Assembly: GCF_988242995.1 (NCBI RefSeq)
Contig: NZ_OZ547043.1
Direction: 5' to 3' (one strand)
Length of the DNA: 64,000 bases
Below are positions 45,001-48,000 of this stretch, piece after piece (within the stretch, counting starts at the first letter, position 1; the number at the start of each line of letters is the position of its first letter). The position numbers are program-made.

Positions 45001-48000
45001 GCAAGCCACCAATGCGGTTATTCCACCGGCCAGAATGCCTGATAACTGATTTAGCGATCAGTTTCGGTGATCCACAGCTGGCCGCCTTCCATCCACGCCA
45101 GCCATTGACCATCCGGCGAGAAGACCACGGCGTCCGCAGAAGGTGGATTGGCGTGGTTTTCGGTTAAATACTCAACCTCGCCGCTTTGCGCATGGGCACA
45201 AGCAATTCGATTATCCAGCACAAAGCCCAACCATTCTCCTGATGGATGCCAGTTAAATGCAGACTGAATATCCGTTTTGTTATGGGTTAACTGGTGCGGC
45301 TCGCCGCCCTGTGGCGAGATAAGCCACAGTTGCACAATGCCGTTATCATCACGCATTAAAAACGCGATTTGCGTACCCTGCGGATTACAGCGCACCCAGT
45401 GGCGCGGGACGTTGACTAACCCCGGATAAGCCCGATGGTGGGTAAAGGTTAAACGTCGCTGCACGACGCCACGCGGTGGCGCGGGCAGGGTTGTTTCCGT
45501 TCCACTTAACGGCGCATCACCTGCCGCTTTCCAGCCAGCTTCATCTTGCGGTAACTCAACGATAAATAGCTCCGGCACTTTCTCGCCCTTTGGCGAAAGT
45601 GTGTCGCCAATAAATGCCAGCGCGTGATTTCCTACCCATCCTTCTTCATAAGCACGATTGATTTCATCGCTGCCAGGCTGCGGCGTGGGCGTGGTTTTAC
45701 TCACCAGCACGCACCAGTGGCTACCGCTGTATTCACGCGGATGCTGCTTTTGTACGTTGACCGGGCCAAACGGTGCCGCAACACCGACGTTTCGCAAATC
45801 CAGCGCCGAATCGAGTTGATGCATTACATGGTCGTTATAGGTAAAGCTCACCCTTTCACCGTTCGGGCTAAAGACATGCACATGGCTGCCGCCGCGCAGC
45901 GCTCCTGGGGTGTACGGCGCGGTAATATCCATTGCATCGAGATTGCTCACCTTGCCGCCTTCAGCAATCACTCCGCGCCGATGATGGAAGTCGTAATGCC
46001 ATGTTTCATCAGGATTTTCCGGGCCGTGGATGAAAACATATTTCTCTGACTTCGGATGAACGGTCACCACGCCGACGTACGCGCCCTGTGACGCGCGATA
46101 GATAACCTCGACCTCGCCGGTATGGATATTCACACGCTCAATGGTCTCGCCAGTAAACGACGCCCCAGAAGGACGCACGTCAAATACCAGCCACTGGCTG
46201 TCGGGCGTCCAGGTATTGGTATTGGTGAGCAGGTGATTACGGGGAGCAAAGGTTATCTGTTTCATAGCGCGGTCCTGATACAAAACGGGTCCCGCCATCA
46301 TACTTCACAAGGACTTCACTTTCAGACAATAGTCTTTCGCCATCGTGATGAATGTGAGTGAAAAGATGGAACATTTCGACGTGGCGATTATTGGCCTCGG
46401 CCCGGCAGGGTCGGCGTTGGCACGAAAGTTAGCAGGCAAAATGCAGGTGATCGCGCTGGATAAAAAGCACCAGTGTGGTACTGAAGGTTTCAGCAAACCC
46501 TGCGGCGGTCTGCTGGCACCGGACGCGCAGCGATCTTTTATTCGCGATGGACTGACGCTTCCTGTCGATGTGATCGCCAACCCGCAGATTTTCAGCGTCA
46601 AAACCGTCGACGTCGCCGCATCGCTCACGCGTAACTACCAGCGAAGCTATATCAATATTAATCGCCATGCTTTCGACTTGTGGATGAAATCGCTGATCCC
46701 CGCCAGCGTTGAGGTTTACCACGACAGCCTGTGTCGAAAAATCTGGCGTGAGGATGATAAATGGCATGTCATTTTTCGTGCAGACGGTTGGGAGCAGCAT
46801 ATTACCGCCCGCTATCTGGTCGGTGCCGATGGTGCCAACTCGATGGTGCGGCGACATCTCTACCCGGACCATCAAATTCGTAAATATGTCGCTATCCAGC
46901 TGTGGTTTGCAGAGAAACATCCGGTACCGTTCTACTCCTGCATCTTTGATAATGCGATAACTGACTGTTATTCATGGAGTATCAGCAAAGACGGTTATTT
47001 TATCTTTGGCGGTGCCTATCCCATGAAAGACGGTCAGACGCGTTTCACGACGCTGAAAGAGAAAATGAGCGCCTTTCAGTTCCAGTTTGGCAAAGCGGTG
47101 AAAAGTGAGAAATGTACCGTGTTGTTTCCCTCACGCTGGCAGGATTTTGTCTGCGGTAAGGACAATGCCTTTCTGATTGGTGAAGCGGCGGGATTTATCA
47201 GCGCCAGCTCGCTGGAGGGGATTAGCTATGCGCTGGATAGCGCAGAGATTCTGCGTTCGGTGTTACTGAAGCAGCCGGAGAAGAGTAACGCCGCCTACTG
47301 GCGCGCCACCCGCAAACTGCGTTTAAAACTCTTCGGTAAGATAGTAAAAAGCCGATGCCTGACCGCACCGGCTTTAAGAAAGTGGATTATGCGCAGTGGT
47401 GTGGCGCATATTCCACAGTTGAAAGATTATCCAACGCGTTTCACATCGCCCACCAGCAGGATGTAAGAGAGCGCGCCAATCAACGCGACGGCGGAGATAT
47501 AAACCAGTGCCGGGGCGAAACCGTAACCCTGCGCCAGGTACCCCACCACCAGCGGAACGGTGATGCCGCCCAGACCACCGGCAAAGTTAAACACGCCGCC
47601 GGTTAAACCAATCAGGCGCATCGGTGCCAGAGAAGAGACCAGCGACCAGGTAATCGAAGCAAAACCGTTGCCGAAGAATGCCAGCGCCATCAGGCACATA
47701 ATCATCATCGGGTCATTGGTGTAGTTAGCGCCCATAATGCAGGTGGAGATCAGCAAGCCGCAGATAATCGGCGTTTTACGCGCAAAGCCCAGTGAAAAGC
47801 CCTTACGTACCAGCAGATCCGCGACCCAGCCAGAGAGCAGGACGCCGACAAACGCCGCGAGGAATGGCACCGTGGTCATAAAGCCTGCTTTCAGCGCCGT
47901 GATTCCTTTTTCCTGGGTTAAATAGTTCGGGAACCAGGTTAAGAAAAACCACAGTGTAGAAGCCACCGCAAATTGCCCAAGATAAACGCCGATCAGTTTA

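Follow-up and report, generated by a model that had tools for sequence, protein, structure and literature searches.

Convergent genes whose 3' ends overlap were analysed by Lillo and Krakauer (2007) in E. coli and 57 other prokaryotes (PMC2174442). For E. coli, 58 such overlaps have been described, those of 4 nt being formed by the tetramers TTAG, TTAA, CTAA and CTAG, and the mutation of stop codons was put forward as their mechanism of origin (PMC2174442). In 19 of these 58 overlaps, a rho-independent terminator is embedded in the partner gene (PMC2174442). On the level of transcripts, the ExcludonFinder catalogue for strain MG1655 comprises 165 convergent 'excludons' that recur in 50% or more of 58 RNA-seq sets, and for 146 of the 165, TransTermHP-predicted terminators are located inside the transcription unit of the neighbouring gene (PMC12288877). 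The gene pair discussed here, cbrA-dgoT, is named in this list together with yidQ-yidR and yidX-yidA from the same neighbourhood. CbrA is an FAD protein which saturates the alpha-isoprene unit in C55-P-linked precursors, and hence colicin M is blocked, as summarized in a review (PMC8469651), and dgoT is the final gene in the dgoRKADT operon. In kind, the feature described in the following is already known, and the cbrA/dgoT overlap itself is ordinary, already annotated and catalogued.

The window analysed here is a stretch of 64,000 nucleotides (contig NZ_OZ547043.1, assembly GCF_988242995.1), in which the region around the overlap represents the E. coli chromosomal segment ibpAB-yidQ-yidR-cbrA-dgoTDAKR. 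A megablast search with positions 46300-48800 gave hits in 5,422 of the 5,426 complete E. coli genomes, the best identity being 99.1%. Both the identities and the convergence of the two genes had been proposed in an original prediction made from the sequence alone, and both were borne out by profile searches: CbrA matches NCBIfam NF008519 (FAD-binding colicin M resistance lipid reductase) with 684.8 bits versus a cut-off of 303, DgoT matches TIGR00893 (D-galactonate transporter) with 494.3 bits versus a cut-off of 395 over residues 38-438, and the genes lie on opposite strands with their 3' ends meeting (Table 1). In the NF008519 alignment, CbrA residues 1-354 correspond to positions 1-354 of the 355-position profile, and the match does not extend to residues 355-366. 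In the K-12 annotation, dgoT is given as a 430-aa form, the start of which would be located at 48719 in the window.

Table 1 Features of the cbrA/dgoT and yidL/glvG junctions in the window
Feature	Position	Strand	Details and basis
cbrA CDS, long allele	46366..47466	+	366 aa; FAD-dependent colicin M resistance lipid reductase plus 12-aa C-terminal extension; ORF; start as in PGAP and K-12 annotations
dgoT CDS (D-galactonate:H+ symporter)	47427..48764	-	445 aa with PGAP-style start; ORF, annotation
Tail-to-tail CDS overlap cbrA/dgoT	47427..47466	both	40 bp, phase 123:213
'Toggle' codon	47428..47430	+	Tyr codon TAT in the window; stop codon TAG in K-12 and most E. coli; alignment and haplotype counts
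Back-up stop TAA closing extended CbrA	47464..47466	+	Junction comparison
Terminator-like hairpin, dgo mRNA sense	47340..47375; stem-loop 47375..47348	-	Candidate intrinsic terminator of the dgo operon
yidL (AraC-type regulator)	36764..37657	+	Stop TAA 37655-37657
glvG-type 6-phospho-alpha-glucosidase	37654..38976	-	Intact, 440 aa; stop TAA is the reverse complement of 37654-37656

The predicted overlap of 40 bp is present in the window, since ORFs as well as the raw sequence put the end of cbrA at 47466 on the plus strand and that of dgoT at 47427 on the minus strand, the dgoT stop TAA being the reverse complement of 47427-47429. The same 40-bp overlap is found in the PGAP annotation of the near-identical genomes T-HYM1 (the closest one), 2018-05-5CC, HS13-1 and ST131. 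According to frame analysis, the third codon positions of both genes stand opposite each other in the overlap. It had further been suggested that an alternative stop or start of cbrA might remove the overlap. As both gene ends are the first in-frame stops, the choice of start codon cannot alter either of them. With respect to the stop, the suggestion applies only in part: an alternative cbrA stop does lead to a shorter overlap in other strains, but it is without effect in this strain, and no earlier in-frame cbrA stop before 47464 is present in the window.

The length of 40 bp is specific to strains with a stop-loss allele of cbrA, the stop/stop overlap being otherwise 4 bp. In K-12 MG1655, cbrA (3869377..3870441) and dgoT (3870438..3871730) overlap by the 4 bp TTAG. 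Alignment of the two cbrA ends, GAT TAG in K-12 versus GAT TAT in the window, gives a single G>T exchange at 47430, and the resulting loss of the stop adds 12 codons to cbrA, up to the in-frame TAA at 47464-47466. The same base is also the wobble base of the final Gly codon of dgoT, which reads GGC in K-12 and GGA here, and the exchange is synonymous in that gene. As the third base of the cbrA stop coincides with a four-fold degenerate wobble position of the last dgoT codon, a change that is silent in dgoT switches cbrA between stop (TAA, TAG) and Tyr (TAT). The original prediction had treated 40 bp as a fixed property of the gene pair, a view that has to be given up in favour of a TAG>TAT stop-loss polymorphism, with at least 69% of complete E. 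coli genomes having an overlap of only 4 bp.

Allele counts were obtained using 33-nt queries centred on the junction in 5,426 complete E. coli genomes, for which a megablast match is possible only if the whole local haplotype is exact. The haplotype of the window, AAA-TAT-CGT, occurs in 150 genomes, and AAA-TAT-CGC, found in ST131 and others, in 1,192. With TAG at the junction, the K-12 haplotype AAG-TAG-CGC was counted in 1,268 genomes, AAA-TAG-CGC (G3/10, BE2-5) in 2,206 and the O157:H7-type TAG haplotype in 274. TAT and its 40-bp overlap are present in at least 1,342 of the 5,426 genomes (24.7%) and TAG with its 4-bp overlap in at least 3,748 (69%), 336 genomes being outside the counted TAT and TAG haplotypes, and these proportions describe a database sample rich in clinical clones and laboratory K-12 derivatives rather than natural populations. 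In the PGAP annotation of seven E. coli records, cbrA has a length of 1,101 nt in TAT genomes and of 1,065 nt in TAG genomes. Where a single base decides on the overlap length, erroneous sequencing of the cbrA stop or a misplaced gene end could also be suspected. This explanation was rejected and its likelihood is practically negligible, given that the identical TAT haplotypes recur in 1,342 independent complete genomes as well as in three further species, and that the gene ends are fixed by the first in-frame stops. The polymorphism serves as a warning that an overlap length obtained from one strain should not be extended to the species.

Measured against the overlaps of Lillo and Krakauer (PMC2174442), the locus displays familiar as well as deviating features. 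The TTAG of the short cbrA allele, together with the TTAA shared by yidL and glvG, represents two of the four listed tetramers, and the long allele follows the described course of a single-base stop loss with read-through to the next in-frame stop in the neighbour, resulting in a chance-like length. Unlike those overlaps, the 4-bp and 40-bp states segregate within one species here, and the mutated base is the silent wobble base of the partner's last codon. The junction offers a clean illustration, inside a single species, of convergent overlaps arising and reverting by one base that is silent in the partner gene.

How far the extension runs can be compared with chance. Across the 445 antisense dgoT codons, the cbrA frame contains 20 stops, corresponding to about one per 22 codons, and 53% of the positions in this frame are followed by at least 12 open codons. 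Upon synonymous reshuffling of dgoT in 5,000 trials, with 47428-47430 kept as a sense codon, all trials (100%) gave an extension of 12 codons or more, and in 63% its length was exactly 12. The length of the extension is no more than the chance expectation and fits the model of stop codon mutation.

For a comparison beyond E. coli, one genome per species with a CbrA alignment was scanned, and 80 loci were analysed for their gene ends. Convergent and abutting cbrA and dgoT genes occur in Escherichia, several Citrobacter, Phytobacter massiliensis, Enterobacter sp. ENT03 and Pseudocitrobacter vendiensis; in Buttiauxella agrestis the two genes are separated by a 62-bp spacer, and in most other genera cbrA is located away from dgoT. 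The junction codon is TAA, giving a 4-bp TTAA overlap and a final dgoT codon GGT, in Citrobacter amalonaticus, C. sedlakii, C. youngae, Phytobacter massiliensis and Enterobacter sp. ENT03, and it is TAG in Escherichia sp. E1V33. E. albertii, E. whittamii and P. vendiensis carry TAT, with a 40-bp overlap and the same 12-residue tail. The TAT alleles do not form a single clade and branch basally in small neighbour-joining trees built for cbrA and dgoT. Judging from these junctions, the codon has clearly toggled more than once across Enterobacteriaceae. The back-up stop, either TAA or TAG, keeps its position throughout the Escherichia loci analysed, and also in the analysed relatives whose dgoT abuts cbrA, C. 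youngae being the only exception, and it is not used wherever the upstream stop exists. Its conservation nearly everywhere is explained by its being antisense to the conserved Ser-Tyr codons of DgoT.

This distribution bears on whether the additional 12 residues matter for the protein. TAT is carried by three or more divergent haplotype groups of E. coli, among them ST131, as well as by E. albertii, E. whittamii and P. vendiensis; its presence in several such groups and in two other Escherichia species means that it could be ancestral or kept by selection rather than a recent neutral variant. If the extension contributed to membrane association, stability or activity of CbrA, TAT and TAG might both be under selection, and the conserved back-up stop 12 codons downstream would be in line with this. 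The tail sequence, however, is set by the conserved DgoT C-terminus on the opposite strand, which also accounts for the conserved back-up stop, and approximately 69% of E. coli genomes do without the extension. Furthermore, the tail lies outside the NF008519 profile. CbrA homologues end at 351-386 aa, with unrelated tails beyond a conserved ...AHIP motif which vary greatly in length and sequence. In the AlphaFold model of CbrA (mean pLDDT 81.5), the last helix comprises residues 335-344, and pLDDT falls below 50 for residues 348-366. A functional role of the extension is accordingly very improbable. As the tail merely lengthens a C-terminus which is already variable and predicted to be disordered, it is most likely neutral for CbrA, as far as sequence comparison and structure model indicate.

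With neither allele is there any intergenic space, and full-length cbrA and dgo mRNAs must consequently overlap. Overlap of the convergent transcripts, as also stated in the original prediction, is thus forced by the absent spacer, and overlapping transcription of cbrA-dgoT has in fact been published for MG1655 (PMC12288877). In this respect the pair resembles the other convergent excludons, transcript overlap being structurally unavoidable. The catalogue entry itself is based on RNA-seq coverage in K-12, that is, on the 4-bp allele and not on the 40-bp allele of the window.

A further element of the original prediction, the lack of an intervening terminator, needs to be qualified. It is correct insofar as there is neither an intergenic spacer nor an evident cbrA terminator, but a predicted hairpin resembling a terminator and oriented like the dgo mRNA lies inside cbrA, in codons ~328-337 and 52-80 nt past the dgoT stop. 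This candidate consists of the stem-loop AAAGCCGGUGC-GGUCAG-GCAUCGGCUUU, followed by UUACUAUCUU; with an 11-bp stem and a 6-nt loop, it has a calculated dG of -18.4 kcal/mol, and the surrounding 181-nt region folds with z = -5.3. When 20 codons were recoded synonymously, the hairpin outperformed 98.8% of the recodings, compared with p = 0.25 for the plus strand. All Escherichia loci have retained it, with one G-U pair changed to A-U in E. albertii at the cost of a Pro>Ser exchange. Like intrinsic terminators embedded in convergent neighbours, including those among the E. coli overlaps of PMC2174442, the candidate lies within the partner CDS and combines a G+C-rich stem of 8-11 bp and a 6-nt loop with a subsequent U-rich stretch. 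Unlike them, however, its predicted U-tract is partly paired and partly coding: of the UUUUU following the G+C core, three U are able to pair with upstream A, leaving UUACUAUCUU as the remaining tail, and part of the U-run is imposed by Lys/Ile codons of the conserved cbrA GKIxK motif. The hairpin is absent from the output of a simple consensus terminator scan. Similar hairpins exist in some genera without adjacent dgoT, and since hairpin presence across genera does not cleanly track dgoT adjacency, this comparison gives no support either way.

The dgo operon is not known to be induced in standard media. Mapped 3' ends for dgoT or cbrA have no entry in the supplementary tables of E. coli 3'-end and Term-seq studies (PMC7815308, PMC10687069). 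On the plus strand, the scan yielded no intrinsic terminator of cbrA inside dgoT, and the fold z of -0.4 is unremarkable. A weak hairpin at 47448..47432 from the same scan was rejected as a terminator on account of its G-T pairs and missing U-run. Searching positions 45000-50000 against Rfam at E <= 1 gave no match. With no evident intrinsic terminator of cbrA inside dgoT, Rho-dependent termination would be the likely default for this gene.

Altogether, the data are best described by two abutting convergent genes in which mutation of a stop codon extends the overlap to 40 bp, with a tail that is most likely neutral and transcripts that overlap with either allele; we assign this account as a whole a probability of about 0.82. 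In the commonest arrangement, the two stop codons share a 4-bp tetramer, which is TTAG in most E. coli and TTAA in Citrobacter and relatives. On TAT cbrA mRNA, ribosomes read 12 further codons antisense to the last codons of dgoT, up to the conserved back-up TAA, and this accounts for the 40-bp overlap. The dgo transcript probably ends at the predicted hairpin and U-tract within cbrA, and cbrA transcripts are presumably ended by Rho or decay.

Alternatively, the junction could be a selected regulatory device in the sense of a true excludon. In that case, D-galactonate would, by inducing dgo, cause transcription to run antisense across the cbrA 3' end, and vice versa, so that polymerase collision or cleavage of the RNA duplex by RNase III leads to mutually exclusive expression. 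Spacer-free convergence conserved in Escherichia, several Citrobacter, Phytobacter and an Enterobacter would agree with such a device, as would the listing of cbrA-dgoT in the MG1655 'excludome' (PMC12288877) and the minus-strand hairpin in cbrA, which exceeds nearly all synonymous recodings and which, if it is the dgo terminator, would assure a transcript overlap of at least ~85 nt. Being one of 165 pairs that were defined solely by coverage says little about function, however, and a base exchange that leaves DgoT unaltered is enough to shift the overlap between 4 and 40 bp. In addition, the spacer in Buttiauxella agrestis and the separate location of cbrA in most genera speak against the device, as do three Escherichia lineages (O157:H7, Escherichia sp. 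E1V33 and E. albertii) in which the dgo operon is deleted and cbrA is intact. Literature searches revealed no experiment linking cbrA and dgoT and nothing relevant on galactonate or dgo induction in connection with cbrA. Such a regulatory function is consequently unlikely, and the possibility raised in the original prediction, that colicin M resistance and galactonate uptake affect each other by transcriptional interference or antisense regulation, is pure conjecture. If true, a functional antisense interaction of cbrA and dgoT would join a sugar-acid catabolic operon to bacteriocin resistance. One might go even further and regard the dgoT wobble base as an evolutionary switch of the CbrA C-terminus with both alleles under selection, by which D-galactonate, aided by the embedded dgo terminator, would modulate colicin M resistance via antisense RNA, and do so differently in 4-bp strains and in 40-bp strains such as ST131; we consider this scenario far-fetched. 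The observations made here do not exceed the default expectation for a spacer-free convergent pair, and in that sense the overlap matters little.

A second, shorter overlap had been predicted in the window between yidL and the glvG-type gene. Here, the tetramer TTAA at 37654..37657 is indeed common to both coding sequences, and the RefSeq annotation of T-HYM1 agrees with this 4-bp overlap.

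The D-galactonate (dgo) operon is missing in three lineages, namely O157:H7, Escherichia sp. E1V33 and E. albertii, and in all three a dgoT 3' remnant of approximately 110-137 nt, comprising the last 37 codons, has been left directly adjoining cbrA and is followed by yidX. These remnants correspond to window positions 47427 to ~47540. On the K-12 locus (L002), the deletion endpoints are the same in O157:H7 and E1V33 (3544|8298), while those of E. albertii differ slightly (3548|~8325). Such endpoints would reflect either a deletion allele swapped among lineages or deletions nearer cbrA not being tolerated.

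Features at the cbrA-dgoT junction and the glv locus (L numbers: cbrA loci of other genomes in their own coordinates; other positions refer to the window)
Feature	Position	Strand	Remark
Candidate dgo-operon terminator-like hairpin	47340-47375	minus	inside cbrA coding sequence
dgoT remnant, O157:H7	L008 1588-1701		
dgoT remnant, Escherichia sp. E1V33	L009 ~4062-4170		
dgoT remnant, E. albertii	L011 ~4062-4170		
glvG, 6-phospho-alpha-glucosidase	glv locus 37654-40853	minus	440 aa
Long PTS ORF upstream of glvG	glv locus 37654-40853	minus	625-aa ORF; PTS subunit IIB in T-HYM1, the closest E. coli genome

Of the synonymous recodings of this stretch of cbrA, 98.8% give a weaker hairpin than the candidate, and no experimental 3' end was found for it in the searched supplementary tables of E. 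coli 3'-end papers. At the other end of dgoT, the annotated start varies by record (window 48720-48764), with 445 aa according to PGAP versus 430 aa in K-12, where the protein begins MDIPVN...; the choice of start is without effect on the 3' overlap.

CbrA itself also varies. Residue 179 (window ~46900) is Leu in the window (motif IQLWF), in an otherwise nearly invariant column occupied by Gln (IQQWF) in the other 18 aligned homologues. In E. coli E69 (CP089930.1), cbrA (L012 3001-4104) encodes 367 aa with a differing C-terminal tail, ...HISQMNCAGHYSESRVLYPK, and no dgoT is present within 3 kb, which together suggest a rearrangement or insertion at this junction.

Elsewhere in the window, the glv locus appears intact; in K-12, glvG and the upstream PTS gene are pseudogenes. 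A further convergent pair is formed by yidQ (plus strand, ending at 45049) and yidR (minus strand, ending at 45051), separated by one base. This pair is among the published MG1655 excludons, i.e., convergent pairs with overlapping transcription (PMC12288877).
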